Positions 11,151 through 45,468 of a DNA stretch of 45,468 bases are shown here, piece after piece; position 1 is the first letter of the stretch; every line of letters starts with the position of its first letter. A program made the position numbers and the translations under genes. The notes beneath the pieces are model-generated. The model saw only the letters and a list, made by a program, of their open reading frames with translations. It ran no database searches and was not told where the DNA came from. This DNA comes from Lytechinus pictus (lineage: Eukaryota), in the NCBI RefSeq assembly GCF_037042905.1, contig NC_087257.1, positions 24,012,533-24,058,000 of the forward strand, read 5' to 3'.

Positions 11151-13439
11151 TTATAACTCATCTCTGTCTTGAAGCTGTGCTACTGTAGCATGCTCCTCGA
11201 TAAATTCACTAAATTTTTCTACTGACCTATCGCCGCCTTCAAACTTGACAGGATTGTTCTTATCTGTTGCTTTTGAGAAATAAATTGTCGGAAATCCTGT
11301 GGTTGAGTACGCTGGATTTGATATATCATTGGCAGTAGCGTCCATCTTAGCGATGACTAGGTTCTTGGTGTTTGCATATTTCTTGCCTAATTTCTTGTAT
11401 TCCGGCTCTAATTTTTTACAATGTCCGCACCACGGTGCATAAAACTCAATAAGGACGTCTTTTGACTTATCCAGGACGATTTTCTCGAATGTTTTCCCGA
11501 CGACGGTCTTGACAGCTGCTTTGGATTTCTTTGGAATGGGCTGGGACTTGATGACAGGTTTTATGTCACCTATGGAAAAAAAAAAGCAGAAAGAATATCA
11601 ACCTTCAGTTCATGCAACAATGAAATTTCACATAACAGATCACAGCACAAATGAAGGTCTGAATCCATTAGAAGGGCACATGATCTCTAAAAAATCTGAG
11701 AATGCTTGATCCATAGATGACATTGTGGGGTCGACATGGTTTAGTGGTTCTGACTCTCCTCTTTCAATCAGAGGGTCGTGGGTTCAAATCTCAGCCATGG
11801 CATTTTACCTTATGCAAGAAATTTACCCACATTGTGCCGCATTCAGCCAAGGTGGGTGTTTCACAAAGCTGTTCGTAAGTTAAGAGCAACTTTAAGAACA
11901 ACTGGTGAACCTTTCTTACGCGCTAAATAATCATCAATGAACATTTAATGGTGAATATCATTTACCACAAGAAAGGTTCACCAGTCGTTCTTAACTTACA
12001 GACAGCTTTATGAAATGGCCCCCTGGTGAGGTGAATGGTAACCTGCAGGATTAATGCCTTGATTCACTGAGCGCTGGAGGCGGCCCGAGCTAAAGCTGGG
12101 GTAATAAATAATACATTATTTCTAGATAGATGGCGGTATATAGATGCCTACTACCGGTATTATTATCATTATTACTATTCTTTCTTTCTTATTTCATCTC
12201 AATGTGCCACCCAATGACTAAAAATGGGTACCCAGTAAGTTGTATGTAAGTTATGAACGACTTTTTTTTTAATGAACAACGGGTGATCCTTAAAAGGAAC
12301 TTCATCATCATCAATGAAAAATCAAGAGTGTATCATTTACCAAAGAAAGGATCACCAGTCGTTCATAGCCACTCATAACTTACTAACAGCTTTATGAAAC
12401 ACCCACCTGGTCCATTGGAATTATATATATATATACACATATATATAGATATTCACCTTACCATACGATCAAATACCCTTTGAAATCTGCATGTTGGTTA
12501 AAAGGTTGTACATACCATTCTGCCATGATCTGATGAAATCCCTGAGAACTTCTGATTCAAACTCATCCTCCGGTTCCAGTTTGTACTTCAGTCCACCAGC
12601 CCCAAATATCCCAACGTTGATGTCCTCACCGCTGTCATCGAGCTCAAGCTGCTTCAGCTCATTTGCAAATTCATCCTCATCGGCGATGGCGAAGAGGAGC
12701 TCGTCAAATTCATTGTCTTTAGCAACCTCAACAATTTTTTGACGATAGATCTCAGTGGCTGTGACATCGGAAGAGAGTAAATAAAAATAAACGGTTAACT
12801 TTAGATCCAGGAGAAGTTTTGAAGCAAAGGAAACCATGTCAAAGAGTGTATGTTATTTTGCGTGCATACTTTGACACAAATGACGGGGGTTCATAGAAAG
12901 AATTTCATAGCTCACAACTATTGTTTCTGTCTTTTGCAGTACTTTCTCTTTTAACCTCAAGTTTGACAAGCATTCTGCTAAATATGTTAGGTCATGTTCA
13001 TCACAATCGTGAACATGATACAATTGGAGCTCCCTTATCTTGAAAAAAAAAACCAACAAATAACAAAAGAAATCAATCGACTTCTAAGAAAAGAAGAGTT
13101 TAAAAAACAAATAAGATTATTGGAAAATAAATGTAGTATGATTTCATGGAATTGACCTCCCCCCCCAAAAAAAAAGGTAGATACATGTACACAGTTCATA
13201 CAAACACCTATTTACACACAAAATGGTCCACCAGATGCATAATTTCAGATAACACAGATCTATTCTGCAATGGAGCCCATTTCACAAACCCATTTGATCT
13301 TAAATGATTTAGACCTTATCTTATCATGAGTTGTTTTTTAAAGTAAAAAATAAGCTTTAAATCTTTCATCCTCCTTACCAACTCTGTGATCAAGACTCCA
13401 ATCCACCGAGTAGAAAGCCAACAGTAGAGGGCGGTCATT
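11151..13439 (-). pseudogene. PDIA4: Protein disulfide-isomerase A4 (ERp72), 3' fragment only (last two exons plus part of the preceding exon)
   Basis: Exons ~13439-13379, 12758-12516, 11569-11151 with phase-1 introns give RPLLLAFYSVDWSLDHRVATEIYRQKIVEVAK...FAIADEDEF...KPVIKSQPIPK...EFYAPWCGHCKKLEP...KMDATAND...FEGGDRS...RDEL*. This matches the PDIA4 b'/a' domains and an ER-retention signal. Similarity stops mid-exon with no good acceptor and no further PDI exons. Confidence 0.85.
11727..12110 (+). mobile_element. tRNA-derived SINE interrupted by a MITE (~11852-12022) in the last PDIA4 intron
   Basis: TGGTTTAGTGGTT A box and GGGTTCAAATC B box. The nested MITE is the same family as 9392-9529; another partial copy lies at ~12234-12407. 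Confidence 0.7.
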
Positions 13440-14748: not shown

Positions 14749-14749
14749 G

Positions 14750-17360
14750 CCGAGAGACTGTAAAGACGTACAGCAGAGAGGTTCGACTTCGAGCGGAATG
14801 TACACGATTCAACCTGATCATAACGGCTGGCCCTTCCAAGTCTACTGTGATATGGTGACTGATGGCGGTGGTTGGACGGTAAGTACATTATTTACAGAAC
14901 GAAATAAAATTTCAAAAATAAATACATACTTATTTTTTCCATAATTACCAAATTCCATTAATTTTTGAAATCTTTCCCTACATTTTCCAATTCCTTTTAC
15001 TATCATTTTCCATCGTCCACTCGCTTACTTTGCATCTGGTTTGATTAACCTGTTTAATTTCTTTCTTCTCTATTTTCAATTTTCTTTAAATGAATTTATT
15101 TTCAGTGACATTCAATATTAATTGACTCTGTAAGACATCGGCCGTACATACCGTTATGTTCTTCATATCAACATTCCTGATGAGTGCTGAACAGTATTAT
15201 AACATCTTAATAAAGAATGCCTTTACAAAAGAACTCCAAAATCCCTTATTTGCTGTGCATAATTTTTATCTCTGTTTTATTATCACCTACCTATTTTCAA
15301 AAAAATATTTCACCCTCCAACTTGGGAGAAATGTTGAACTTTCAGGTAGTAATTCGATGGTTCATGCATGCAGTAACAGATCATATCGTCTACATGTAGC
15401 ACATTGGTCGATAGATGGTGCCATAACAAAATCATGCAATTCCTGGTTCATGCTTTCAGCCTTCTATTTTTTTTCTTATGAATGGAAATTATGTTGCTCA
15501 TTGTATCTGATATGGTCAAATTTTGAAGACTTGACACATCATCAAAGTATGAGAATGGGCAAAATATTTATATACTTTATTTGATTAGTTCTATAAAAAA
15601 AATCGGGTAGTTATAGATGCCGAGTACCTCCACATTTTTAAGAGTGTTTCGTAGGTTTATAATACTCTGATGACTGAAATGCAAACGATTTGGGGAAAAT
15701 TGAAAATTTTGAGGCAGGTTTTTTTCCCATCTATTTTGAATAATTCCATATGAATTGACTGGAGGCAAATAATACCTTTCGCACGAAATAAAATGTCACC
15801 GACAGTGAGTATGTAAGTCATCATGTGCATATTTCAAATTCACCTCGTGCTATCAATATCAATCACAAAGTAACTAGCCATAGGCCTACATGCCATAAAG
15901 GTCTACATGTAGTCTATAAGTGTCATCAGCAAGCTTGGAAAAGTTATACAGTCATGTGTAACACCTAAATGCATGTCATCCAATGGAGCGACTTCTATCA
16001 GCCGTTGACATGCTTCACTTTTTTTGTTACAGGTCTTCCAACGCCGTTCGAATGGTTCCGAACAGTTCCGACGCGGCTGGGCCAGCTATCGGAGGGGCTT
16101 CGGCTCAGCCGATGGCGAGTTCTGGCTCGGCCTTGATCGACTACATCGACTTACGTACCAAGACGAATACGAACTCAGGGTCGATATGTCCGACTTCGAC
16201 AACATCGCAGTGCATGCTGGGTATACATGGTTTAGGGTAGACGGCACAGCGTCAAATTATAGGCTACACGTTGGAGAATACAATGGAATCGCAGGTACAA
16301 AAACGCCAAGGGAGCCAATAAGGGGGTCTTCGTTTCCCACGACCCACGAAGGATTCAAGTACATAGAAAATGTATTGTTGATTTATGACAAAGAACAAAC
16401 AAGAATTCTTTGTCGAAAATTTGTAAATCAAAACAGCAGTTTCGTCCTGGATTCTGGACAAACAACATATTTGCAATTTTTCGTCACCTTCGAAACTTAG
16501 GACGAAATTTCCTGTTCCGGTTCACCAATTTCCGACAAACACCTCCCAGCTGTGCTATGTCATCTCGGGCATTTTCAATATATTTACTATGTTCTTGAAT
16601 TTGTCCCCGTTGCATTTGCGAAAATACCCCAATGATAAACAACCGATTACACCGTAGAAAATTTGGCGACGTGCACTTGTTGCCCAAATGGCAGAAGGAT
16701 TATCAGCCTTTTATGACCTACTATGTATCAGTTTCTTCATTCATAATATTTTCAGCCCTTATGATATTTATTTCATCAAGGGATCTCACAAAAAAGTTCC
16801 ACCTCATCTGACTGTTCTGGTTCTAGGGGTTATTCATTTACAATTGAATCAATTCTAAGGGTGGCAACCGCGTAAAACGTGCTCAAAGCTTCCTCAAGAG
16901 CTATGACTTAACCATAACAAGGGAAGTGTTTATAAACATCGCAATTGCATAACGTTTATTGTTCATAAATCTCTATTCGACTTCGAATTTTTAAAAGAAC
17001 TATTGATGATTAAAACCCCTAGACGTGCCAATTTCCCTTAAAAACTTCCTTGAAAACTCAGGTCCAACTTAACTTAGTATTCTCATTGATTGATTTTCAG
17101 GTGATGCACTGTCCTACCACGATGGTCAAGAGTTCAGCACGAACGACCGTGACCACGATTCGACCAATACGAGCCACTGCGCCAGAGACTCCGGCGAAGG
17201 AGGGTGGTGGTTTAATCGCTGCCTTGAGGCCAACCCGAACGGTCTCTACCTCGGAGGCCACACGGAAAGGACACGAGAGGGCATCGTGTGGACACCATGG
17301 AAAGGGGCGAATTACTCGTTGAAGACGATACAACTGAAATTGCGCCCAGTTGCAGATTAA
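14750..17360 (+). CDS. Fibrinogen-related domain (FReD; ficolin/MFAP4/angiopoietin-like) protein, 5' end missing at assembly gap
   Basis: Exons <14750-14878, 16033-16294, 17101-17360 give PRDC...[13 protein letters not shown]|VFQRR...[14 protein letters not shown]...|[20 protein letters not shown]...CA...GGWWFNRC...NPNGLY...YSLK...LRP. Canonical FReD motifs and an open frame; AATAAA near 17443. Confidence 0.9.
16322..16630. mobile_element. ~310-bp foldback MITE family, copy 1
   Basis: Long imperfect TIRs (GGATTCAAGTACATAG/CTATGTTCTTGAAT); internal sequence is the reverse complement of 18546-18854 and 21105-21325. Confidence 0.7.
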
Positions 17361-21325: not shown

Positions 21326-22669
21326 GAATAATGTTCCGTTGCCACTGAGTATATTACCGGATGAATATATTATACGATATATATTTGATTGAAATATTAC
21401 TGTGACCATGTTCAGATTTTCTCACATTCTCGTATTCTACACATCACATACCCCATACTTCGGATTATATTTGAATGTACTGTATTTCATTGTCTCATGT
21501 GTGAAATAAAATAGAAAAATACTTATTGGAAACAATTCATATGTATTCGTTGTCAGCTGTCTAGTCATGTTAAATTATCGTATAAAAGCAATTATGATAT
21601 GAAGGAGATTGCGATGATAATAAAACATAACGACAATAATAGTAGTAAAGGTTGCTATATAACAGCAACAATAATTTTAGTAGTAATATTAGTGAAAGTT
21701 ATAATAATGATAATAATAATATAGGGCAGTTGTATCACGCACATATCCACCTTGATAGGTGCTCCCATATATAAAACTGATAACAATAAAAGAGTTGGCC
21801 TATAAATAATTGGCGATGATAATAGTAATGATGATAACAATAATTGTAGTCCTATATTTACGCTAAGTATACAGTCAAATGCAAATCATTATCCATGATT
21901 GGTTGTTCTATTGTTCATATTATACTTGACCATATAGACTTATATTTACCTTCAACTGTAGAACTGGTTATATCTTTAATATTACAGGTCCATGAAGCAA
22001 TTTATATAACCAAACCGTGGACCAGCTTTTAAAACTGTAATGATTTCAAAAATCAGCCAAGAAGAAAAAGGAGGAACAAATAACTGGAACATAATCCAAA
22101 CTTTAATTTACCCCCGGGAATTTACCACGGTTTGGACAAAAACACATTTGGCACTAAAAATGAACTGAAGGGATAATGATTTCATCCGAATATGAACAGA
22201 TGTTATTTTATCTGCAATAAACAAACGAATTATGGATCAATAATAAACAGTACTATATGTAGGCCTACTATCTTATAGACAATAAATGCATTCACATGCG
22301 TGCCGACTAAAGCTGTGCAAATCGTTAGTGCGCATTTGTTATAGCTCTGGTTTTCTTGTTATAATAACCTTGATAAGAATTATAATTATTGATTCAGATT
22401 TACATTTTGCATTATAGATCAATGCTCGGTGAGTGTAGGCCATTCATGAAGGGGATACCACCTTTTAACTATTTCACAGTCCTTGTTTGCAACCATTATT
22501 TCAGTAGAGCCCTCGTCATTAAAACTAATCTGGGTTACGAACGATCGACCAAACGAAGATTAACTCATTATACGCGGCGGGTTTCGCGGTCAATTTCTTG
22601 AGAGCCATTTCGGGATTCTGGACCGACTGCAAGGCATAACGAATCCCAGCTAACTGGTCAGGCCAGACC

Positions 22670-24910
22670 ATGGACCGGTTCGCAAGTCTCCTGGGCATCA
22701 TTGTGACCGTCTTCGTACTCGTACCGGTACAAGGCCACATATCATTCCAGTACTGCAGGCCGAAGTGCCCAGAGTGTCCACAGGCGGGTCTTATCCCCTT
22801 GGAGGATTGGCAACTGAGAGAGATCCAGAATGCCCAGAAGAGGGTCGCCGCTCTCAAGACCAACCGCAGCATGACTTATAGCAACACCAGGCCTATCGTT
22901 TCAGGCTTTACAACCAGTCAGGTAGGGAGTGCAATGATGCCCTTTCATAAATGCGGTCATCTGTACCGCGGTATTATTTGCCGGTTACTATACGGGTATC
23001 AGGATCTATGAATATTAACCTACCCTTTTTCCCAAACTGCTATAAAATTATCAAGGGCTCGATCTGCACGTTCAATATAAGATATCAAGAAAACGTTGCC
23101 ATGCCTCTGTCCACCGCTTGCCAACGAAGTTGTTTCACCCACATTTTACTTCGAAATAAATTAATATCATCCACTTTTATACACTAAAATGCTTCTAGGT
23201 TACCCTTACATGCATGAATTAAACTCACCCGTTATGCTTTTTTACGAGGTTAAAAAAAACTTCTGGAGTGCGAAAATACAGATTTGCAGATAATACTTGT
23301 ATTTTTTATGTTATATTTATATGTAATTTTCATATTTGATTATTTTCTAACAGAAGGAACGATTGAGGGAATTATTCGGCCAATACTTCAGCACAGACAA
23401 AACATCAGCTGACGAAGACTTCATGTTGTTTGACGAAACTAACCCAAGTAGTCGACGGCGAAAGCGCGACCCCGATGATCACCTGACTCGGGTCTGTCCG
23501 GTTATCCGAACTCCGAATGTTCTTGTGACAGTCTATGATGCGGATGGCAACGTCTTACAAGTGATTCAGGTGAGCTTTCAGATTTCAGTTTTCCATACAA
23601 TAATGCAAATTGAAAGGAAACAATATGTAAATATCATAGTTGATATAGTTTGAAGTTTATGTAGAATATCTTCCTAAAACATTTCAATAAATTAAAATAA
23701 CAGTTTACTAAAAAATGTTTAGGCATAGCCATATAACAGTTAATAAAGCCTTTTCTCTGTATTTGTTTTTCATCATAAGCATAGTTTGGTAGTAGGGTCG
23801 TCGATCAATGTTTTGGATGGGGGGTGAAAAAGAAAAATTCCGTAATTGTCAGTGCGCTCTGCGCACAAAATTATCATAGGCCCTACCGAACTTTTCGCCG
23901 TCAAGTTAACACTTGCGTTTATGTCATGTTAAATTATTGCATATATATTTCCACTGCATTTTAAGATATATATTAGCATATATTACATAGGTTATATAGA
24001 TTCGAATCAGTGATAGGTCAATACGTCATCACGTGACCATAGCTGCGAGGATCGCATTTGTTATATTCTAGGTTTTGACGTCACCTCAGGGAATATACTG
24101 CGTTGTATTGTCAATTGCGGCGTTATATTCACTAAGGTGACGTCACTCGCTGCATACAAGTTGCGTAACAAGGCAGTTTATCTGATGTACGCGCTAATGT
24201 TAACGCGTCGATTGCATGAAGAACGCGCTTGATGTATTTAAAAAAAAATATATATTATGACGTAGATGGATCAGAGCTGTAGCAAGAATTTCGGGTTTGA
24301 GCCAGATGATGAATGCGATTTCTGATGGCGAATCCACATAGACTATATAATATAACAGATATTGCCTAGCCTATCGTTGTAATAAATAACATTTCATCTC
24401 CCCTCCGAAGCTATATTTTTCCCTCGGGATAATATTTTCCCTCAGCGCTGCGCGCTTCGGGCAAAACATAATCCCTTGGGAAAAATATAACTCCGTCGGG
24501 GAGAGGAAATGTTATATTCAAACTCTAGGTAGGCAATATCTGTATAATATAGGCCTATTCGTGTCAGTTTTGGTAATGCTATACCGTCAGACAAGACATG
24601 ATTTCTCGACATAGAGATGTATACTAATACATCTCTATGTTACTCGATGATTTTTTTTATATAGTCTCCGTTAATAGAAAAACATCTTATTTTTCTTGAT
24701 GTATCTCAGGCCGACGGTCATACACAACCGGTGTTCCGTGACAGATGTGCAAGCCCTCTCTCACCGCATGTAATCTCAGCTTCATGTATGCCGACTGTAC
24801 GGTTTGCTTACATGATTGGCTTCCATGTCGATATGAACAACCAGCCAACGCATATCCAAGCTTATCGTATTCAGATCGAGTCCTGTACCTCGATCATGTC
24901 AACGGGATGA
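22670..24910 (+). CDS. Secreted precursor, 222 aa, with neurotrophin/Spaetzle-like C-terminal domain
   Basis: Exons 22670-22921, 23354-23569, 24710-24910, both introns phase 0 and GT-AG. Signal peptide MDRFASLLGIIVTVFVLVPVQG, then CRPKCPEC, furin-type site RRRKR, and a 100-aa mature region with 4 Cys. AATAAA at ~25120 and ~25144. The gene model is firm; the family assignment is by eye. Confidence 0.78.
24351..24549. mobile_element. Palindromic MITE in intron 2 of the secreted-protein gene
   Basis: ACAGATATTGCCTA...TAGGCAATATCTGT with extended imperfect arms around a GCGCTGCGCGC centre. Confidence 0.7.
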
Positions 24911-31991: not shown

Positions 31992-34900
31992 ATGGGATCA
32001 AAGGGATCAAAGATAGCTTCATCTCCGAAGCCAAAGGGTGAAGAAGAAGAGGAGGTAAGTTCCAGTGGTGCCAGCAACATCAACACCAGGAGGCGCAAGA
32101 AGGACCGTCATGGAGAAGCATCCTCCAGATCTCCGAAGTCGAACCGCAAGAAACACAAGCGGAAGATCACTCTGAACCCTCTGTCCTACCACAGCCATAG
32201 TGTCTTCAGTTCGATGGAAATCGACAAAACACTCCGGAAAAGTTCGGTGGACGTCAGGAACAAGCTGACGGACTCGATGAAGTCGATCAGATCGGACGCG
32301 TCGGTCTCGGACGCCTCGTGGTACACGGACAACAGTTCCGTGGAACTCATTGACCATGAAGTCTTCGAGTACCCATTTGAGAACTTGATCTTCGAAGGCG
32401 GAGGAAACAAGGGTTTGGCGTATGCTGGTGCTATCCGGGTGAGTTGTCATACAGATGTTGACATTGCTTTACCGGAATTTAATTTGGGTGACATCAATGA
32501 ACCTAACAGACATTTGCTCTATAAATTGCCCCTAAACATGTTTCTGCTATTTCTTCTTCTTGTTTGGTTTTCCATTGAATAAATTTATAGTAGTCTTTGA
32601 GTAAAACACCGTCAGTTAAAATTGTCTCAATGTATCAAACTGTCCGTTCATTATGTAGGGATCGTGCTCAGGCTCCCGATCCACCCCGCCTATAGATTAA
32701 ATATTTCGAAATGAAGGGCGGATAACAAGTAGGCCTAATGCCAGGAAGATGCCATTTGATTAAATCTTGTCATGGAATTGTAATTTAGTCCGTAGCCAGG
32801 CGAATGATATGTACATTGAAAATGTTCCTTTGACTTTTGTTTATACCTGCACAAAATGGAGATAAAGTTGAAATGAATGAGAAAATAAAATATGATTTAA
32901 GTCGTTCATCATGTGAATTAGAACCTAACGACTTGCGTCACCCCCCCCCCCCCCCCCCCCATCCGGCCTCATGAAATAGAAGGTTTTCTAGTTAGGCATT
33001 TGGAAATAATTTGTACACAAAACTTCAGTTCTATTTTCACATCGTCTTCATATGTGATTGAAGATGAATAATCGTAATGAGTCATCTCTAGGACCCCTTT
33101 AATATTATATTCACGATAACTAATCCATCTAATGGTACCCTTAATGGAATTCTTGTTCTTTGATTTACTGTTGAACATTGCAACCATGGTAATCACCATT
33201 AGATAGAAAAAGCTACCATAATAGTAACTTTATGCAACCGGGACCAGAACCCCTGAAAAATAATGAATAATCTCGGCATGACTGATTAGCATATAAATGT
33301 TCCGGGATAATCTGGAATTCGATCGATTTTTACAAAGGTCAATTGCAACGTCCGTTTTAATAGGATGCGCTTAAAATCGATAACCATTGTTTTCATGCAT
33401 TCAAGAAACGGTTTTAGTGTATTATTGATTTTCTTTGCAATAATAAATAGGTGTTCAGTTTTACGTTGATTTCTCTTCACGACGAGATCGTCAAGTTTAC
33501 ATTTTCCCTCGCCTGACCGAATAAATGTTGTAAACATTTTTAACAATTGGCAAAAAAAGTTAGTTTCGGTTATTTTTTGTTTAATTAAGTTGTTTGTCAA
33601 TATCATAAAATCTTTATTTAATTATTCATTTTATTCATCTGTTTATTTATTTATTAACAATATTTCAACAGGATGCCGAATCAACATAAAATTGCTCTCC
33701 CTTGGGTTCCTGCATAATTATTATAAAAACAATCAAAATATATTCTATAATACACAGTAAAATTAACATGAACAAATATACATACATACTATGATAGAAC
33801 ATAATATTATCAACATCTAAATCATTGTCATCAAGCTTCGTCAACGACACGTCATCATCGCTATCATATCACAGCAGCATATTACATAATCTTAAAGGAC
33901 AAGTCCATCCCAACAAAAAGTTCAAAGGAATAAAAAGATAAAAATCCAACGAGCATAACAATGAAAAATTCATCAAAATCGGATGTAAAATAAGAAAGTT
34001 ATGACATTTTAAAGTTTCGCTTGATAAAAAAACAGTTATATGCACATCCCGGTCGGTATGCATATGAGCAGACCGATGACGTCATTCACTTACTATTTCT
34101 TTTGTATTTTATTATATGAAATATGAAATATTATAATTTTCTCATTGTCAAGTGAAACAAAGATTAATTATTCCATGTACATGTGGAAATAGTATTACTT
34201 TATTTGGTTCAGTCAAGTTGGTCCTTACTGTCAAATCTGTAAAAAATGAAATATTGTATAATTCAAACAATGCAAAACAACAGAAATAGTGAGTGAGGGA
34301 CATCATCGTCTGTCTCATTTGCATGTCACTGAGTTGTGCATATCACTGTTTTGTGAAAAATAAGCGAAACTTTAAAATGTCATAACTCTTATTTTACATC
34401 CGATTTTGATGAAATTTTCAGCATTATGCTAGTTTGATTTTCTCTATTTATTCAAATCAACATTTTTCTGGGGTGGACTTGACCTTTAAGCACCACCATC
34501 GACATTATCACCGCCATCACCACCATCATCATCATCATTATCATCAACATCATCATCNNNNNNNNNNNNNNNNNNNNNNNNNNNNNNNNNNNNNNNNNNN
34601 NNNNNNNNNNNNNNNNNNNNNNNNNNNNNNNNNNNNNNNNNNNNNNNNNNNNNNNNNNNNNNNNNNNNNNNNNNNNNNNNNNNNNNNNNNNNNNNNNNNN
34701 NNNNNNNNNNNNNNNNNNNNNNNNNNNNNNNNNNNNNNNNNNNNNNNNNNNNNNNNNNNNNNNNNNNNNNNNNNNNNNCACCATCACCATAATCATCATC
34801 ATTATCATTATCATCATCATCACCATCGACATCATCATCATCACCACCACCACCACCACCACCATCATCACCACCACCAACATCATCCTTACCTTTTTTC

Positions 34901-37900
34901 TCTTTCTCTTTCTGTTACCAAGGAGCTTGAAAGAGTTGGAATATGGAAGAACATCAAACGACTCGGAGGGGCAAGTGCGGGGGCAATGACTGCGGCCCTC
35001 ATGGCGATCGGATACAACTCTTATGAACTGAAAGAATTTCTGAGCATGAACCTCCAGGGATATTTCCTAGGTAAGAAATTGAAGACCAACAACAGACGAA
35101 GAATAGACAGAATGTGGCTAGTTTTTTTTGTGAGGACCCGTTTCATAAAAAAAGTCTTGTTTTAATATTAACAAATGCAAAATTACTATAACAAATTTAC
35201 TATCAGCCAGTCAGATTGAAAGATTTCAGTAGCTTTTAACTGTTATTGCAAATTTGTTATTACATATGTATAACAAGTTTTGTGAAATGGGCCCCCGCAG
35301 TTATTCAATCTACCTTGTATAACGAAAAACATCTACCTGTTACCGGTATCGTGGGAAAACTGAAACATGGTGAGATATTTTTTTAAAGAAGCGTAAATTC
35401 ATGAATGTCAATTTTTTTGTAATACAATCAATACAGATGCAAGGTGCGCCACGTGTAGTCTTCTTCCAAACCTCCTGAGGCATTTTGGGTGGCATCCTGC
35501 GCGTCGTCTCTTCGAGTGGTTCGGAGATAGACTAGAGGAGCAGACTGGTGATGCCGATGTAACCTTTAAACAGCTGTACGACCGATTGGGCAAAGAGCTG
35601 TGTATCGTGGTCACCAATCTGAATCACATGGATGCCGAGTATTGTCACGTGAAGACTACGCCAAATATGCCGATAAGGATCGCAGTGCGCATGTCTCTTG
35701 CAATCCCAGGTGAGGAAATATAAGAACCATAAAAGTGATATGAATTAAAATGTCAAAATTGTACTGAAAGTATTTCTATCTTGCCAAGTCATTTAATAAG
35801 CATAATTATTGTCGACTTATTAACTTTTTATGACGACTTCAAGAAAGTTTGATCTACTTGTCGTCATGGTGACATAAGTTGACTTGAAAATAAGTTAAAC
35901 GTCGTCATGGTGACGTTAAGTATCTTGCATAATCGACATTAAAAAGTTATATGTTATCATGGAGATATAAGGTATATTACCATCACTTCTTCTAAAAATT
36001 ACAAGTCGCCATGGTAACATAATATAACTTGCTATGTCTACTTCTAAAAAGCTACCTGTCACGAAACACAGTATCTCATTCAGTCGAATTGGTAGGTTAT
36101 GTTTCTATTCACTTGTGAATCATGGCACTGACACCCTTTTCTTCAAATTGTATCTATTTAGGTTTGTTTGGTGCAGTGAGGTGTGAAAAACAAGGGAGTC
36201 ATGATTACTATGTAGACGGGGGTGTCCTCTGCAACTATCCTTTACATTGCTATGACGGTAAGTTTTTAAAAATAATCACATACGAATACTGGGCTTTAAG
36301 AAAATCTTATTTAAACATCGAATTGGAGCATAACGACATCAACACAGTTTATTTATCATAAACATGATATTTGATTAAGATCTGAGATATAACGATGAAT
36401 ACTTACATTTTTCAAAAAACTGAAACGGCCGTTAAGCGAGAAAATAAGCAACCCTAAATGAATAAAGAAGTCAATAGTAAATTTCCATATCCCATTCCAA
36501 ATGAAGAACATGCACAACGATGGTCATTTTGTTTCTTAAACGAAAAGAAGATTCCCAACTTTCGATGTCAACTTGCCGGTCAAAGAGTGCAATGCACCTT
36601 AACAATATAACTTAGAGAAGTTTGAATTATTTTGGATTGACAAATTTTGATTTTCGATAACAACTATAATTACAAAATTGTGTTCTCAAAGGTTGGTGGC
36701 TTTCGATGAAACCTCAAGACAGTATGCTGAGAAGACTTCAGCCACTTGAAGACATCGGTAAACTATGGGACAAGAAGGAACGATTTGGAACCATTAACCC
36801 GAAAACAATCGGACTCTACCTCGTAAGTATCTTTCGATGTATCTACCGATATTTATAGGAGAAATGGGACAGAATTACAGAAAGGATTTTGTCTCAGAGA
36901 TAGGACTCTTAAGCTTGCCGTGCATAAATGCAATTTAACATCAATATCCATTTAGAACTGACCGGGGCTTGATTGGTTTATCGGCACCGGCACCTCTTGA
37001 ACGGGAGGTCATGGGTTCCAAGTTGCTCCTTTTTGCCTTTTCCCAGCGGCGGTTGGCACATGATACAGTTCCTAGCGAAAGAACAGTCTCATCATTATCA
37101 ACGTGGCTACAAAAATAAATAAAAAGATATTAGACATTAATTACTTAAAAACTAAATGTCCTCTTGCTCCAACAGAGAAGCAGTGGCGTAGCTACGGGGG
37201 GCCTGGGGGGCACGTGCCCCCCTGAGATTTGGTGTGCCCCCCCCCCCCCCAGGTGCCCCCCTGAAAAAAATTGGCAGAGCAAAAAAAAGAAAAAAGGGAG
37301 AAAGAAGAAAAGAAAAAAGGAAAAGAAGAAAGACAGAAGAAAAAAAGAGAGGAAAATAAGAGGAGGGAGACGAGTGAGTGAAATAATGTGAAGGGAATAC
37401 TTGCAAAAAAAAAACAAATCTTTCTATATAAAACTTTTGCTTGCGTTTCGCGCCAGAATTGCCTGTTCGATGAGATTCATATCTTGCTCAATAGGCTGAT
37501 ATGGAGCAAGTTTTGAAGTCAATATACAAAATATATTTTAGCTCGGACATCGAGCTTTCATCAATTTTTTTTCATTAACAAATTTTAGTGCTCTAGCTGT
37601 AAAATGTCCCTTTTATAGTCTACATATCAGCATTTTTAAGCTCACGCTGCGTGGTCGCACTTTTTATAAGGCTCATGAGATTATTTCATGTTTATGATGT
37701 TTTATAAGAATAAAACTAAGAAGTGACTGATCGGGGGAAATGTAGGTGAAGATAATTTCGGGCCCCGTCCCCTATTGGCGAAAGTCGGATCCGCCCTTGT
37801 GACACATACACAACGGAAAAATGGTGCCCCCCTGAAAAAGCAAGGACCCCCCAGTGCCCCCCAGGACAAAAATCCTAGCTACGCCACTGCAGAGAAGGGA

Positions 37901-40900
37901 GAGGAAGTGGCGGATATGGCAGTATGCCTACAGGCGAATGCTATATTCTTCGGGTCTTAATGGCGAATCAAATTTTGAAGTTTATTCGATTATCATCAAG
38001 AAAGAGAGGTGCCGTACGTGGCCGAGTGGTCTAAGGAGCCTGGCTACACATGGACGGGGTTCGATCCCCGGCCGAGGCACCTATGCCCGTGAGCAAGGCA
38101 TATAATCGGCAATGCTCTTTTAATCTGCATTTAAATAAATGGAAATGGTACATGCATTATTGGTAAGGTGTGCATTTGCTGTTAGAAAAGTATAAGGGGT
38201 TTACTCATAATTGCACAAAGAAAATATCATAGTTTCAGATTGGGCCTATAGGCCTACAAAGCGTATACTTCATCGTTTTTATCCTAAAATTATACATACA
38301 TGTATGTAAATATAAACTTTGAACTTTTTTATTATCAAATTACATATCGTTCCAGTACAGCAGCGATGAACAGGATGTTATGGTTTCAAAGCTACAAAGG
38401 AGGAAAATGCACAATGTAAAACGACCTGACACAAAACTTTCCAAGTAAGAATATATATTTGAATGTCCACTATAATTTTCTTTCATGAGGGGCAGAAATA
38501 TTCGTGTTGTAAATATTGCATGTTATCATTATTCGAAAATTTTATGACATGTGTCATCAATTCGTTTGTTATAACGAAGTATTGATCAGTGAAATAAGCT
38601 TCTAGGATTTAAAGATAAAAAAAAAAAAAAAATTTAATATCAGATTAAGGGAAAAAGAATCGTAATCGATGAAAATGATTTATTAACGGAAATTGCAATG
38701 AATTATTCTTCAGTTTTGTAGGCTGACATTGCGGTAATAAAAAAGAACAGATCCGATATAATGACAGAAACTTTTTTTGCCAATTTGGAATATTAAACAG
38801 ATTCGCTTATATAAATATTCAAATCCCCCTCTTTTTTTTTTTCTTCTGGAAAAGGAAGAGGGAAGGAATCAGAGAGGTGAAAGACGCGGCCGTGCGCGAG
38901 CACGCTATCATTACCCAGGCGTTGTCGAGTTTTCTTAGACTCCTTGCCGAAAGCGACGTCGACGAGAGCGGCTCGATCACGAGAAAAGAACTCCAGCAGG
39001 CATTTTCCAAGAAGGTGGATTACTTTACGGACGGGCACCGTCGAACTCTTTTCGGGGACAACTGCCAAGTCGATGATATTTTCGACTATTTGAACCACGA
39101 AAAGGATGATGAGGTAAAGGACATGACGAGAACTACTAGCGTACTTATCATTACCATTATTATTTTATTTTGCACAATCCAAGAAAAAATACCAGCAATA
39201 GGATAAAGGGAGTCACATTGATGCCGGGAAAGGAAAAAGGGTGAAGTAACTATTAAGTATTGAATATTTACCCGAAGGTTTTCCAGGCCATGCGGTATTC
39301 GCAGGGTCTTTAATGAAACATTGTAGGTTTCAGAATCATAATTCGAATCCATTTGATTTCAGAATCATAAGTCTGGATGCCAAAAAAGTTGAAATAAAAT
39401 GTTTAAAAATACGGGAGTAATGGAAAACAGTAGGGAAAACGTTCCCCGTGAGTGGGGTTAAATTTTTTTAATGTGCAAATGTGCGCCCCGCCCCCTTTTG
39501 GGAAATAGCCATCCATACATCCGGCATTTGTTTAACCGTACTTGATAGTCTATCATCATCTCCTTTTAACGATTTCTCTTTCCTCACCAGATAACCTACC
39601 AGGAATTACAAGACTTCGCTGAGAAACGGGGCGTGGCCATCCAATCCAGTTTCGAGGGATACGGGAGAAAAGAGATCAAGTCATTTGGTCAGTTCCTCGG
39701 AGCTCTTTCCGACACCCTACTCGTTAATGTCAAAAGAATTTTTACCACGGTAAGTTCATTACAATGAATATACTGTATTTATTTATTAAACAATCTTTAT
39801 ACAGGATAAATATGTTCAGATAACATATACACTGTTTTTCAACATGGTCCTGTAGACATAGTAAATATCTAACAATGTACAGAAAAATGCATTAAACAAT
39901 CTAAATCCCTATATTTTTATTGTAGGATTTCAATGTGTTCTACCCCATTTTGCCAATTTTGTGCTAAGATGCGATCTATTAGAATCAATTTCGATACTGA
40001 CCAATTCGCACAGCTTTCAAACGTCAGAAATTTATTATATCATAACTTTCTCATTTACATCGGAATTTGATGTTTTTTTTTGTTTGATCTTTATCTTTCC
40101 ATTCAAACAATTAACCCGTTGACTACTGAATTGATAAGCTTTGTACAGGTCGCGCTTGGTTCCTAAGAGGCAATGGGTTAACTTTTGTAACAGCAGTAAT
40201 CTCTTTATGACACACTAATGTTTGTATATACTATCTATTATTTAAATATTCACAGGACGAGGACATCGGCCGAACGATTGGTATCGATACCGTCTATGTT
40301 GGTACCACTGATTTTGAACTGGAAGAGGGCGACATACAATTTTTGTTTGAGGTATTTTCATTTCTATGTTTATTTTTGGGACGAGACATTAAAATGAATT
40401 GCACACATGTACACTATTTCCTTCAGCTCTGATTGACGGAGGAGCACTGGGGCCGTTTCATGGAAGTTGCCAGCACTGCATGACGAGCTGCATTATCTGA
40501 CAGTTACCATAGTAACAGTCAGACAGCTGTGTTTCTCAGTCAAACAGATCCAAGGAAAGTTGTAAGATCCGACAACTTGCAGGATGAAAAAAGTGGACAT
40601 ATTAATGTTGATAAAGAGTCCCCGATATGGATAAATCTGATGTTGTATAAAATGTTTTATACAACAGAAAATAAAAGTTAGACACCTGGGGCCCGTTTCT
40701 CAACACCTGGACAAGTTAGTCATATCTTTATATTAAAAAAGTGGACATATTAATGTTGATAAAGAGTCCCCGATATGGATAAATCTGATGTTGTATAAAA
40801 TGTTTTATACAACAGAAAATAAAAGTTAGACACATGGGGCCCGTTTCTCAACACCTGGACAAGTTAGTCATATCTTTATCCACCGAGCACGGAGTTAGTT

Positions 40901-42765
40901 CCATTCTTACTAAACCTGTTTCACGAACTAGGCTTCCTAACTAGAATACCTTGATATCGATACCATCGGTAAAAAGAGCAGACGAGACGTAGCCTTAGTC
41001 ACAAAATTGCAAATATTGTGATGAATTGGGATATACTTTTTTTTTAAATAATAGCACAGGTAAATTATGCATCATGCATACTTAGACCATGAAGATTGGA
41101 GCATTCAATTGCTGAGAAAATTGAATTATGAATAATTTATTTTATGACAAAAAAATCACATGTGGACGTTGAGATGGGTACCCCTTGGATATCCAATTTT
41201 AATAGTTTACGAAAGTAAACCATAACGGTTTTCTTTGTAAAATGATGATAATTATACGGTCTTTTACGAATCCAAACATCATCGAAATATAGTTTAACAA
41301 TTTTTTTAAAATCTTTGATACCGAAACTTACGATTTGACAAATTCTATGCATAAATTAGAGATAGAATTTATCCAAATGTTAATAGGGGGCTGAAAACGA
41401 CAAATACGAGTCAAGTTATGGATGGCCTGACGTGGTAGAATCTTTATCGATTAAATTATTTTACTATTTCAAAATGAATGGTTTTGTGGCGTTTTACCAA
41501 CAGTTTTTATAGTTTCTTTGTATTATAATGATCATTGAAAGCATTATCCCACTTGTTTTGGGATGTAATTTCAACCTGTATTATTGATTACGTAAGATTA
41601 TAATTTTCAAATTTCTAGGCACTTTTGCATGTCATAGTCTACCCACGTGATGCCACTACGTCATTAAGAAGTTATGACAGGTTCGGAGGTGTCATAAATA
41701 TTTAGTGAGGTTGTTGTACCCGATCTTGGTAAAGAGGGCTTCGTGAAACGGTTAGCGGACAAGTAGCTCACTATCTCCGATTTAGTCAAGAAGTTAGACT
41801 TATGACGGTGTTGAGAAACGGGCCCCTGCGTTTCTCTGACAACTTGCCGAATGATAAATGTCCCAATTGGAGGATGAAAAAAGGGGACAAATTTTCCCAA
41901 TGTTCTCCTGGTCTCTGGCGGTTAAACTGATATTGTTGACAAGCTCAGATTTTGGGGAATCTCAACAAATTATTCCTTGTTCTCTCAACAAAATAGTCCT
42001 TGGCCTTCTTGATATTGCTTTAAACAGAATAGGGGAGATATATATATCATATTATTGATATGAATATACTTTTTATAACTACAGCAAGGAGAGCGAGCAG
42101 TTCGATCTTACCTCCGCCATCATGTGAGACTCCACGACCCACCTCTGAAGAAAGAACTGCGAGGCGGAAGTACAACAGAGAGCACATTACCCTATAGAGA
42201 ACCCAAGCAACAGTTTCACGCAGATCCAGAGCGAGCAAGGGACTCCAAACAAGGGTCTGCCGTTCTTTCCCGCACTAACTTACACGCGCATAACCTAAGC
42301 GTGAATGCAACATCGCAAGATACATTGGATAGGTCGGGCCCGTTGCCGAGTCGCCTGGACAGTGGACCGCCGATACTTATCTCGGAACCGATGGAAGAAG
42401 TGCCTCGTAGCCGCACCCGGTTGCCGCCACTCGAAGGCACTAGTCACAGAAGTCCCTCACCAACAAGGTTCGATGTTATCCCCATGGGCTCTCGCAGTTC
42501 GCTTCGTCTTGGGAACTCTCCGAGTTCATCTCCAAAGTTGCTTCATGGTGACAACTGCCCGAGTACATCTCCAAGGAGTATGTCTCCGGGCTTGTTTCAT
42601 GGCGGGAACACTCCGACGAGATCTCCGAGATTGATTCATGATGGATATTCTCCAAATACATCTCCTCGATCAAGGTCTGACGGGGAAAAGCTTGTACGTG
42701 CGAAGAGAGGGAAAAGGTCAGCAAAGGACTTGTCAAACAGTGCATTTGATCAGAACGATTCTTGA
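31992..42765 (+). CDS. Patatin-like phospholipase with internal EF-hand pair, copy B, complete, ~792 aa
   Basis: Exons 31992-32438, 34923-35070, 35437-35709, 36162-36257, 36692-36822, 38356-38444, 38855-39113, 39591-39749, 40256-40351, 42085-42765 total 2379 nt, all GT-AG with matching phases. Patatin motifs EGGGNKG (oxyanion loop), GASAG (nucleophile Ser), VDGG (catalytic Asp). N-terminus MGSKGS. EF loops DVDESGSITRKE and degenerate NHEKDDEITYQE. Confidence 0.9.
33896..34485. mobile_element. Non-autonomous Kolobok-type element (right-end partial copy at ~27955-28153)
   Basis: TTAA-AGGACAAGTCCA...TGGACTTGACCT-TTAA with long subterminal inverted repeats (AAAATTCATCAAAATCGGATGTAAAATAAG and its complement). 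Confidence 0.8.
34491..34886. repeat. (CAT/CAC)n microsatellite spanning assembly gap 34558-34778
   Basis: Visible directly; intronic, just upstream of the exon 2 acceptor. Confidence 0.95.
37181..37889. mobile_element. Same hAT-type element in copy B, intact TIRs, internal deletion
   Basis: TIR CAGTGGCGTAGCTA/TAGCTACGCCACTG; TSD CAGAGAAG at 37173-37180 and 37890-37897; lacks ~660 bp equivalent to 2939-3598. Confidence 0.9.
40689..41825. mobile_element. PIF/Harbinger-like non-autonomous element, copy B only
   Basis: TIR GGGCCCGTTTCTCAACACC/GGTGTTGAGAAACGGGCCC with 3-bp TSD CTG. Empty site ACAC-CTG-CGTTT at ~6910. The left junction is tandemly duplicated (second left TIR at 40837). Confidence 0.8.
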
Positions 42766-45468
42766 GAAAGGGCATTATTATGATTTTTCTTTTAATACAG
42801 AACAAAAAACTCTATTTTAATGCAGGTTCTGAGCGTCTTTCAATCAAATCAGATCAACCGATCATGGCTGTTGAGTTTCGATTTGGTGTTAACTTTAGTT
42901 TTGTCAGAGTAGGAAATTTGATTTTGATTTTCGCAAGAGTGGGGGACATCACATTATGCAAAATAGCGCTTATATATATCTGTCTAAGTGTGGAAATTTT
43001 TTTTTTGTATTTTCCCTGCAAATGCACTAATAAATGTAATTCAAAAGACACACAGTCTCTTAGATTTCAAATCTAACAAAAGTGAATTTGGTCTTTTTTG
43101 GAAATATTTATATGTATCCTCCCCCCCCCCCCCATTGACTAAACTCTGGCTAGTTATCAGGCAAAAGGCTACATTTAGATGCACATTTGAATACAGAAAC
43201 CTACATGTGTTGTAGTATGTTAGTTATTTACTTATAGTACAATTTGTTTCAATTATTGATTATGCATTTCTTATTTTTTGCACATAGGAAAACTATATGT
43301 AAGTCATCAATTTATTTGCCTAATTGCCTTCCACATTTATTTTTGCAATAAAAGTGAATTACGCAATTGCAATGATGGAAAATTCATCATTATGTTAGTT
43401 GTTTAACAATTAGAAACATTTGGAATTTATTTCATAGTTTTACTTTATAGCTGCACATGTTAGCCAACTAGGTATAGGCAAATGAACTGGTGCTTGACAA
43501 GAAACTTACCACTGTAATAAAGAAGAAATACTGGAGCAAAGTGTTAAGTTAACCAACCAATCAAATATATTTATTAATTTTTGCACATCATCATGTGCTA
43601 ATTATTGCTTTACATAACTACAAATGTGATCACATTTTCACTGTTGGCATTGATAAGAAATACTTTGACATAACATCAAGTCAGTGTGACATTTCAAAAG
43701 TGGAATGTGTTAACTCGTTAAGTCCAATTCACTATTTGGAAGGAATGATATTTTGTGACTCCATAAACTTTTAACCCTGAAGAGACAAAATATCCTTTTT
43801 TTTCTGAAAAAAGAAAGAAATTACAATAGCAGACCTCCTACCCCTTCATAACACAGAAATTTAGATAATTTTGCTCCAAAGATAACCTTACCAAAGATAT
43901 AGATATAAGTGAAGTGAACTAAGAAAATCAGTACTTATTTTGAGATAATAATACAAATATGGTATCTTCATCACTTTGGCAGTAATTTTTTTTATACATA
44001 CAAAAAATAGATTTCTCAAACAATACAATTGTTCCTAAAATGTTTAACGAATTTTTATAAAGAAGTACCGGTATTTTGGATGAGAAAATTGCTCACAATG
44101 TACATGTAATGCATTGTAAATCAATATGGGAAGAATTTTCCCCCACAAAATAAATAAAACAAAAGGGTATAAAAATGGGTAAGATTCACTTGGTCTACAA
44201 GTACTTCGTCTAATTCTGAGACACTCTTATACTACATGGGCCAAACCCAATTAGTCGGCTAAACCCAGTGGCCCGTATTCTGAACTCGGGTTTAAATTAA
44301 ACACTGGTTTAAAGTTGTAGTTTAACTATGGAAAGCCAGTTGTTACATATATTTCTAACAGTAGAGGTTCAATCAGCTCATTTGACTCCCAAAACATTAA
44401 CTACCTGGGAAGGATAAGTATGACAGTCTTCACCATTAAAGAATTAGTAAAGACCACAGTAAACATAAGAAGCAATCACTGTAAACAAAATTTTGAAACG
44501 TCTGGCTTCTCATAATTTTAGCACAGAGTTAGACATGGTCTAAGTTAAACCCGACTTAAGAATACGGGCCAATTAGTCCAATACCCACTTAGTCAATTTG
44601 TCTACATATTATTTACCGCTTTAAAAAATTAAGATTGGGTACCTTAACAGTTCATTTAATCAGAGAGACAAAGTAGTTGTACACCAACACCAAGTGGCAA
44701 TTTACCCCAAAATGTACCAAAAATGAAAAAAATATTTATGTTACTGGCATGTGGTCAGAACAAGGATTAGAGGAAAGCCCTTCTCAACTAATGCATATGC
44801 CTGTAAAATATGAAGTCATTAACTTGATCTGTGCACCTTTTAAAGATGGGTTAACGTGGTGACATTTGTAATTCAGTGAGTGTTGCTTCCTCTTTGTGTA
44901 TCTTGTTTTTAATTCTATCATATTCAATAACTGTGATTTTCTTCATTCTTCTGTGAATATTTTATTCTTAACTTTTATATACTTTCAATACCATTATATT
45001 GTGGCTGGTTATGAGGTGGAACTAAATTTTATCAAAAATTCTCGGTGGATTTTGACAAATACAAATATTTTTGTAAGATGTACAAAATAATGACAATCAC
45101 TTAACATTGTAATTTTCCCCCTATCTTTGCCAATAGATGGGGAAAAACCCAACATTTAGCTCTAGTTAACAAGGAAGAAGTATTGAAATACAATCCCTTT
45201 CAGCTATCATTAAAACATTTCACTTAAATCTGTATCAGTGCATACAAAGGCTTGTGAATGGTACTTCAAAGGCTCAGGGAAAATTTTGCCGTGTTTTGGA
45301 TTAATTTTATATTAACTTTAAACAAATGATATTTGTGAATTTCCACTGTCATGTTAACGATACAATATTGCTACCATATGTACACAGGCTAAGTGTATTC
45401 CTGATAATTCATTTATTAACATTAAACATACATTCTTACCATTTGATATAATATTGATGCAAATAAAT

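Follow-up and report, generated by a model that had tools for sequence, protein, structure and literature searches.

An ExoU/VipD-like patatin of the sea urchin Lytechinus pictus with an EF-hand pair inside its fold: predicted calcium regulation and relatives in animals, protists and bacteria

Can an intracellular lipase carry its own calcium sensor within the catalytic fold? The question is raised by a gene of the sea urchin Lytechinus pictus, located on the + strand at positions 31992-42765 of the window, by which we mean the whole analysed stretch of 45,468 nucleotides (assembly GCF_037042905.1, contig NC_087257.1, positions 24,012,533 to 24,058,000). The original prediction, made from the letters of this DNA, described its product as a myristoylated patatin phospholipase with inserted EF-hands, directly regulated by Ca2+ and belonging to a poorly characterised invertebrate family. 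As follows from the analysis below, the protein belongs to a known patatin class (ExoU/VipD-like), and its sensor architecture is common to animals, protists and bacteria. Ten exons, with all introns of the GT-AG type, join into a single frame of 792 residues without internal stop, which is identical to the protein P0001 (L. pictus LOC129275250); that record was probably derived from the same assembly, so the agreement is not an independent one. The features of the gene are as follows.

31992..32438, + strand: exon 1, residues 1-149, with the MGSKGS start, an acidic run, the basic clusters RRRKK (from 32088) and RKKHKRK (from 32145), a disordered linker and GGGNKG
31992..32009, + strand: predicted N-myristoylation motif MGSKGS (G2, S6), from sequence
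32397..32414, + strand: oxyanion-hole loop GGGNKG, residues 136-141, aligned to the VipD glycine loop
34923..35070, + strand: exon 2, with the nucleophile elbow GASAG (residue 165; Ser167) at 34968-34982
35437..35709, + strand: exon 3, with HVKTTP and AVRMSLAIPG
36162..36257, + strand: exon 4, with YVDGG (from 36209), catalytic Asp308 and DGG at 36215-36223
36692..36822, + strand: exon 5, with the clade-typical GWWLSM and the penultimate core strand, residues 360-366
38356..38444, + strand: exon 6, leading into the insertion; 3' end matched by loose read ends
38855..39113, + strand: exon 7, with the stalk helix 392-428, the EF1 loop DVDESGSITRKE at 38955-38990 and residues 1-7 of the EF2 loop at 39093-39113
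39591..39749, + strand: exon 8, with the rest of the EF2 loop, the end of the insertion (about residue 508) and helix 513-529
40256..40351, + strand: exon 9, with the last core strand RTIGID (RTIGIDT from 40271) and the TTDF loop (VGTTDFEL from 40298), common to EF-less relatives
42085..42765, + strand: exon 10, with the closing helix 558-583 and a disordered Ser/Pro-rich tail with 10 SP/TP sites; stop at 42765

Stranded RNA reads from three runs covered exons 7-9 at a depth of 5-11, spanned the joint of exons 7 and 8 (6, 4 and 4 reads) and that of exons 8 and 9 (5, 5 and 1 reads), and continued with loose ends into exons 6 and 10; these reads cannot distinguish the 792-residue gene from a near-identical second copy, described below. 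As the EF2 loop spans the 7-8 joint, EF2 is confirmed as spliced. No indexed run containing exon 1 was recorded as RNA. An origin of the EF insertion in an assembly or splicing artefact was ruled out, since the reads link exons 7, 8 and 9 and intronless bacterial genes have the same insertion. The gene is real and expressed.

The Pfam Patatin model (PF01734) matched residues 132-318 with an expectation value (E) of 1.5e-23 and a score of 84.5 bits against a cut-off of 27.7. The glycine loop, GxSxG and DGG (residues 136, 165 and 308) are all present and the catalytic dyad Ser167/Asp308 is intact, so that the motifs GGGNKG, GASAG and DGG of the original prediction were found in their places on the + strand, as was the closing segment RTIGIDT..VGTTDFEL. 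The dyad is intact in all 79 named animal and all 155 bacterial members with both sites aligned, and D308 and G309 are invariant across 82 aligned members. The segment MSLAIP (284-289) may be compared with the block III proline motif ASxxxP, described for bacterial members in a part of PMC5127104; its Ser and Pro are retained, the spacing is longer by one and the first residue is Met. In the AlphaFold model of the protein (82-row alignment; predicted template modelling score, pTM, 0.68; predicted local distance difference test, pLDDT, mostly >85 over residues 121-490), the core sheet extends with strands 360-366 and 541-545, followed by the closing helix 558-583. VipD was the best fold match (Z 24.1, root-mean-square deviation, rmsd, 2.7, 249 aligned, model residues 124-581), PlpD, CapV, CapE, patatin and iPLA2β gave Z 19.5-22.3, and the eight solved patatins compared lay at Z 18-24, with Foldseek E as low as 8.5e-12. 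A patatin α/β fold is predicted from this model, and we consider it highly probable that the protein is an active acyl hydrolase. Divergent members of the family in which Gly replaces the catalytic Ser (P0080, P0139, P0157, P0163-P0166, P0172, P0180, P0189, P0191, P0209) are likely pseudo-enzymes.

The position of the EF-hands was resolved by the model together with the alignment of relatives. The last two core strands are separated by 180 residues here, versus 52-56 in 14 of the 15 EF-less relatives, the remaining one having an unrelated low-complexity insert at this point. The insertion of about 125 residues (approximately 392-508) begins with a long helix, continues with EF1, a linker helix and EF2, and closes with a short helix directly before the conserved helix 513-529. 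In the model the EF pair comprises helix 392-428, a loop, strand 436-437 and helix 438-446, followed by helix 467-474, a loop, strand 481-482 and helix 484-493, with the two short strands paired and pLDDT of 92-96 per ten-residue block; residues 412-495 superpose on the EF-hand domains of polcalcin and RASEF (Z 7.4 and 7.1, rmsd 3.6-3.8, 65-69 aligned). Given that the patatin fold spans residues 124-581 and the EF domain 412-495, the pair lies within the fold after the dyad, that is, downstream of the catalytic Asp and beyond the Pfam Patatin model, yet inside the α/β fold. The earlier claim of an EF-hand pair inserted in the catalytic region is thus borne out by the model, the superposition and conservation, with the refinement that the insertion follows the catalytic Asp; sequence and model support a real, conserved insertion. 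A search of the ESM Atlas using the insertion alone gave no usable match.

The ligands at positions 1, 3, 5 and 12 of EF1 are D, D, S and E, a canonical set, and those of EF2 are N, E, D and E; EF1 matches a PROSITE-style EF pattern, and EF2 (NHEKDDEITYQE) does not. When a strictly canonical loop was defined by D at position 1, D/N at 3, D/N/S at 5, I/V/L at 8 and E/D at 12, such loops were found as EF1 in 24 and as EF2 in 46 of the 62 named animal proteins (out of 84) with both loops aligned, at least one being canonical in 52 and both in 18. The corresponding figures for the 152 bacterial proteins (out of 158) with both loops aligned were 78, 79, 138 and 19. Glu occupies position 12 in 89-100% of the loops, whether animal or bacterial, and 66 of 82 residues of the EF pair are identical to S. 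purpuratus P0002, as compared with 76 of 88 in the closing core segment and 93 of 207 in the tail, so the loops are conserved among relatives. The combination of a canonical EF1 with a non-canonical EF2 recurs in P0002 and in P0006 (Diadema). The second loop is degenerate here, as had been noted, although this does not extend to the family, in which EF2 is mostly the canonical loop; its degeneration is confined to this echinoid lineage. The protein probably has at least one Ca2+ site.

Residues 1-120 are mostly disordered (pLDDT <50 at 1-44 and 84-109), with 14 K/R and 2 D/E in the basic cluster at residues 32-60. The MGSKGS start, which fits the N-myristoylation consensus, and the clusters RRRKK and RKKHKRK all occur where they had been reported, and a start of the MGxxxS/T form is enriched in animals: it was found in 34 of the 74 named animal members having a Met start and the glycine loop, versus 1 of 119 bacterial proteins. 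At the other end, the tail after residue 586 is disordered and poorly conserved. The Met-Gly-x-x-x-Ser/Thr start of the animal proteins was also seen in three EF-less relatives of 360-470 residues (P0210, P0213, P0223), for which a eukaryotic or giant-virus source is possible.

The class assignment was made by searches of solved structures. VipD and ExoU occupied the top five rows of both PDB searches, with E of 2.4e-13 and 2.6e-8 by sequence and 2.5e-24 and 3.3e-21 by profile, and iPLA2β was not among the nine sequence matches at E ≤1. Legionella VipD and VpdC and Pseudomonas ExoU belong to the CDD family Pat_ExoU_VipD_like, in which sea urchin, Nematostella, Trichoplax and lancelet proteins were already placed, with accessions not named in the part of the paper cited (PMC5127104). 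The view that the core is closer to ExoU/VipD than to the PNPLA proteins holds on both grounds, the PDB ranking and this publication. The nearest relatives are bacterial and protist EF-patatins, as we call the proteins with this architecture, followed by EF-less bacterial patatins, in a tree without human PNPLA sequences, and separate patatin genes lie on four other contigs of the Lytechinus genome. By motif context, these genes are presumably of the NTE, iPLA2β, ATGL and iPLA2γ types. Orthology to one of PNPLA1-9, which the original prediction had proposed to look for, was ruled out by these nearest relatives, by the PDB search and by the separate PNPLA-type genes. A lipoxygenase fusion, suggested by twelve JGI labels reading 'arachidonate 5-lipoxygenase', was rejected as well: no lipoxygenase domain appears in the 11 labelled proteins for which Pfam domains are listed, or in the seven proteins retrieved in a search for longer forms, which is weak evidence.

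The distribution of the family turned out to be broad. Animal members with an organism name were found in cnidarians, a placozoan, molluscs, an annelid, nemerteans, echinoderms, hemichordates and amphioxus, the Lytechinus genome having about nine loci; none was found in vertebrates, tunicates, arthropods or nematodes among the named matches of searches that were not exhaustive. Named protist members are those of the kinetoplastid Papus ankaliazontas, the diatom Thalassiosira exigua (with degenerate loops) and one MMETSP transcript. Among GTDB genomes, 39 of 46 pattern matches proved to be relatives, 35 of them with both loops; full-length bacterial relatives are 33-41% identical to residues 121-585. 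By record title the 39 bacterial loci belong to Actinomycetota (27), Myxococcota (7) and Pseudomonadota (5), and several labels of metagenome-assembled genomes look wrong, these rows grouping with Actinomycetota or Myxococcota. The Cystobacter fuscus protein (497 residues; model pLDDT 91.5, pTM 0.89) has the same layout as the sea-urchin protein and found 420 relatives at E ≤1e-10, most of the 120 listed having EF-hand Pfam matches; within its phylum the gene is rare (5 of 301 genomes searched, centre included). In the ESM Atlas, three eukaryotic clusters and one that is 73% bacterial hold both Patatin and EF families. The idea of an invertebrate-only family has to be abandoned, as the same architecture occurs in protists, Myxococcota and Actinomycetota. 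Contamination as the source of the bacterial copies was ruled out by the complete Cystobacter chromosome, the adjoining chemotaxis genes and a GC content of the gene close to that of the locus. An anti-phage role found no support: PADLOC and NCBIfam matches were weak and far under their cut-offs, and no defence families occurred among 42 neighbours of 14 of the 39 bacterial loci. Two viral-contig scans, one of them with P0223, revealed no viral members, and a phage collection gave one weak match (E 6e-6).

Several gene associations were seen among these relatives. At eight of the 39 bacterial loci (L016, L018-L022, L031, L043), all of which fall in one myxobacterial-type branch, the gene directly downstream, often touching the patatin stop codon, is of the YiiX/YaeF permuted papain-like kind (PF05708; e.g., L031:6380-7066). 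A lipoxygenase-like open reading frame (PF00305, E 6e-6) on the - strand of L038 (3094-4602) points away from the EF-patatin gene and has no copy in other loci. Four proteins of 1367-2271 residues, likely from protists (P0137, P0196, P0206, P0240), have a Patched/NPC1 sterol-sensing domain fused to the EF-patatin module, which hints at sterol or lysosomal lipid handling.

The phylogenetic analysis was performed on 91 rows and 316 columns with the insertion excluded, after 3 of the 94 chosen rows had been dropped as partial or fused; 15 of the 18 rows that are neither animal nor bacterial carry an inferred label only. All EF-clade proteins fell on one branch against the 15 EF-less rows (support 100/99), which makes a single origin of the insertion likely, as judged from the sequences. 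The bacterial members formed one group (100/98), joining two sterol-sensing fusions (92/79) and then protist-like rows (78/79), and animals grouped with three further rows (80/93). In the best tree the bacteria are nested among eukaryotes; constraining the eukaryote-side rows together cost 14.7 log units, and the p value of the approximately unbiased test (p-AU) of 0.172 leaves the direction of transfer open. Since the EF pair is of eukaryotic style and the range among bacteria is patchy, and given the best tree, we lean slightly towards transfer from a eukaryote to a bacterium. The ancient bacterial origin suggested earlier therefore fits the scaffold, as all five EF-less rows with an organism name are bacterial, whereas for the EF form the best tree leans the opposite way at the same p-AU. 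The shared architecture also testifies to an old gene transfer between the eukaryotic and bacterial lines.

How could such a sensor act on the enzyme? We favour, with about even chances, a myristoyl-anchored phospholipase A/lysophospholipase switched on directly by Ca2+. Myristate on Gly2 and the basic cluster would hold the protein at the cytosolic membrane, where the lipid pocket would be closed in the resting state by helix 513-529, which probably corresponds to CapV α10. Ca2+ would bind mainly to EF1 in the Lytechinus protein (in most relatives, to EF2); the change would be relayed by the stalk helix of 37 residues and by the short connection to helix 513-529, and the pocket would open with release of fatty acid and lysolipid. 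In this way the job of cPLA2, Ca2+-triggered lipid release, would be done with an inbuilt EF-hand switch, not a C2 domain. In CapV, as described in the cited part of PMC12480259, the straight α10 shuts the pocket, and upon activation a shift of α9 makes the loop drag α10 so that the pocket opens. Counting back from the aligned ends (model 585 = CapV 341), helix 558-583 would correspond to α11, loop 546-557 to loop 299-311 and helix 513-529 to α10 of CapV; the EF insertion would then sit in the α9-α10 loop, the lever of activation.

A number of observations weigh against such a switch. Ca2+ regulation, myristoylation and lipase activity are all predictions from sequence and model, and the α10 match comes from counting at range ends, not from residue-level superposition. 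The EF Pfam scores of the 792-residue protein are borderline (EF-hand_6 at 25.1 bits with a cut-off of 25; EF-hand_7 at E 2.3e-4 over 427-490, under its cut-off), and one site may be lost, since EF2 has Asn at position 1, Glu at 3 and Asp at 6. The amphioxus subgroup P0081-P0089 has lost the loops and retained the dyad, i.e., the enzyme can do without them. An acidic run (residues 17-21) lies between Gly2 and the basic cluster, which could alternatively be a bipartite nuclear signal. Three published results on other patatins add to these points and enter the alternatives considered below.

The EF pair of an active lipase might be structural or a docking surface for a partner or self-assembly, any Ca2+ or Mg2+ being bound constitutively and a protein cofactor activating the enzyme, as is the case for VipD and ExoU. 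This would agree with the differing canonical loop between lineages (both loops being canonical in a minority of proteins, as counted above), with the dyad retained in EF-degenerate members and with the protein activators required by the closest solved relatives, such as ubiquitin for ExoU (PMC5127104, in part). Yet Glu12, Gly6 and the hydrophobic position 8 are retained in animals and bacteria, as metal binding would require, and no match was found for the C-terminal activator domains of VipD and ExoU, the structural overlap stopping at VipD 411 of 530 and ExoU 450; we regard this alternative as rather unlikely. Ca2+ on the EF pair could also close the pocket, acting as an inbuilt brake of the iPLA2β style, with membrane remodelling at rest and a pause during the Ca2+ spike. 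The insertion site permits either sign of the effect, and iPLA2β is allosterically inhibited by Ca2+/calmodulin according to the cited section of PMC5823874; however, the nearer relatives stay closed at rest until a signal opens them, as reported in parts of the papers on CapV (PMC12480259) and on VipD, whose groove is covered by a loop (PMC3521694), which makes a brake improbable in our opinion. Least of all do we expect a protein that is not mainly a phospholipase, whether engaged in neutral-lipid hydrolysis, in acyl transfer (e.g., on sterol esters) or as a non-catalytic scaffold. To such a role could be related the four sterol-sensing fusions, the papain-like gene downstream at the eight myxobacterial-type loci, the paralogues with Gly for the catalytic Ser and the Bacillus patatin PisP, compared here as a patatin only, which had no phospholipase activity in one assay, on egg yolk (PMC13752580, in part). 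Against it, the GGGxKG loop retains the basic residue whose counterpart in CapV (R21; PMC12480259) binds the phosphate of the lipid, and the nearest solved relatives are named phospholipases, so this possibility seems to us very slight.

The remainder of the window was annotated as well.

28..7861, + strand: second copy of the patatin gene, exons 2-10, with exon 1 located immediately upstream of the window
11154-12852, - strand: 3' exons of a gene for a protein disulfide isomerase that has a WCGHC thioredoxin domain (E 1.6e-26) and ends in RDEL
14749-17357, + strand: gene with fibrinogen C-terminal domains (fibrinogen-related domain, FReD, type; E 2e-29 and 2e-25), present once, between the two duplicated units
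22667-24907, + strand: exons of a small secreted-looking protein with a hydrophobic start, an RRRKR site and a Cys-rich end; no Pfam match at E 0.05

The second copy belongs to a tandem duplication of approximately 35-39 kb (window 1-13436 versus 34783-45468 and flanks; 24.6 kb aligned at 94.9% identity with multi-kb indels), in which the patatin gene, the protein disulfide isomerase exons and the gene of the secreted-looking protein are repeated, and the fibrinogen-domain gene is not. Its exons 2-9 are protein-identical, with 2 silent changes in 1251 bases, as opposed to 4 in exon 1 and 19 in exon 10. In exon 10, codon 671 (7493-7495) is an in-frame stop and 15 further residues differ, giving a product of 670 residues without most of the disordered tail. 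The copy may be an uncollapsed second haplotype or a recent duplicate; whichever its origin, it is the core that is under constraint, and not the tail. The secreted-looking protein presumably resembles a cystine-knot growth factor precursor. Intron 9 of the 792-residue gene contains a 148-base direct tandem repeat (98.6%) at 40584-40879.

No paper on the EF-hand form was found in the literature searched, subscription papers lying mostly outside that search; databases mark the EF-hands automatically, and the proteins are sometimes named 'Calmodulin'. No solved patatin matched here has an EF-hand sensor of its own. If the proposed gating is true, it would add a third way of linking Ca2+ to the release of lipids, next to the C2 domain of cPLA2 and the calmodulin that acts on iPLA2β; marine invertebrates would possess a source of free fatty acid and lysolipid that is triggered by Ca2+ and missing from the vertebrate phospholipase A2 (PLA2) scheme, and myxobacteria and freshwater actinobacteria would hold a eukaryote-style Ca2+-to-lipid switch. 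In a study of sea-urchin egg exocytosis, no C2-bearing cPLA2 was reported among 66 predicted urchin PLA2 sequences, and its authors took the search no further (PMC6523306); the EF-patatin family is a candidate for the cPLA2-type role in this process. With the compact Cystobacter protein, a test of the mechanism in E. coli should be easy. It is possible, as a tentative generalisation, that EF-patatins are an ancient, overlooked class of directly Ca2+-gated intracellular phospholipases, extending from placozoans and corals to amphioxus and exchanged with bacteria with the sensor intact.

In comparison with known systems, the protein is like VipD and ExoU in the glycine loop, GxSxG and DGG and in their sequence context; however, VipD, ExoU and VpdC are injected effectors, whereas this is a host gene with introns, set apart from VipD and ExoU also by its EF insertion and predicted myristoyl start, and it reached 62 bits with the VpdC model (cut-off 1000). 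The EF-less YqhO-like bacterial patatins (Bacillus, Clostridium and Nitratidesulfovibrio plasmid genes, Cystobacter paralogues), the sister group in the tree, are 35-40% identical in the catalytic part and share the TLG strand, the pocket helix, the RT strand and the TDF loop, but are devoid of the insertion and of the GWWLSM segment. CapV and CapE of the cyclic-oligonucleotide-based anti-phage signalling system (CBASS) resemble the model in fold (Z 22.1, rmsd 4.0, 281 aligned, and Z 20.9, rmsd 3.7, 268 aligned, respectively), and theirs is a shut pocket opened by a second messenger (PMC12480259, in part). Their sensor is a cyclic dinucleotide site, in place of which the Lytechinus protein has the EF pair; the CBASS_lipase model gave 17 bits (cut-off 200), and no CBASS or cyclase genes were found among the 42 neighbours at the 14 bacterial loci scanned. 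With iPLA2β the protein shares the patatin fold and the Ser-Asp dyad (Z 19.5, rmsd 4.3, 276 aligned), while Ca2+ control of iPLA2β proceeds via a separate calmodulin and not an inbuilt EF pair. Finally, the group IV enzyme cPLA2 has a related fold (Z 13.8, rmsd 4.7, 268 aligned) and, as proposed here, would share the role of Ca2+-triggered fatty-acid release; it docks to the membrane in a Ca2+-dependent manner via its C2 domain (PMC6523306, in part), whereas in the sea-urchin protein, in which Pfam found no C2 domain, the anchor would be the predicted myristate and the sensor would lie inside the catalytic fold itself.

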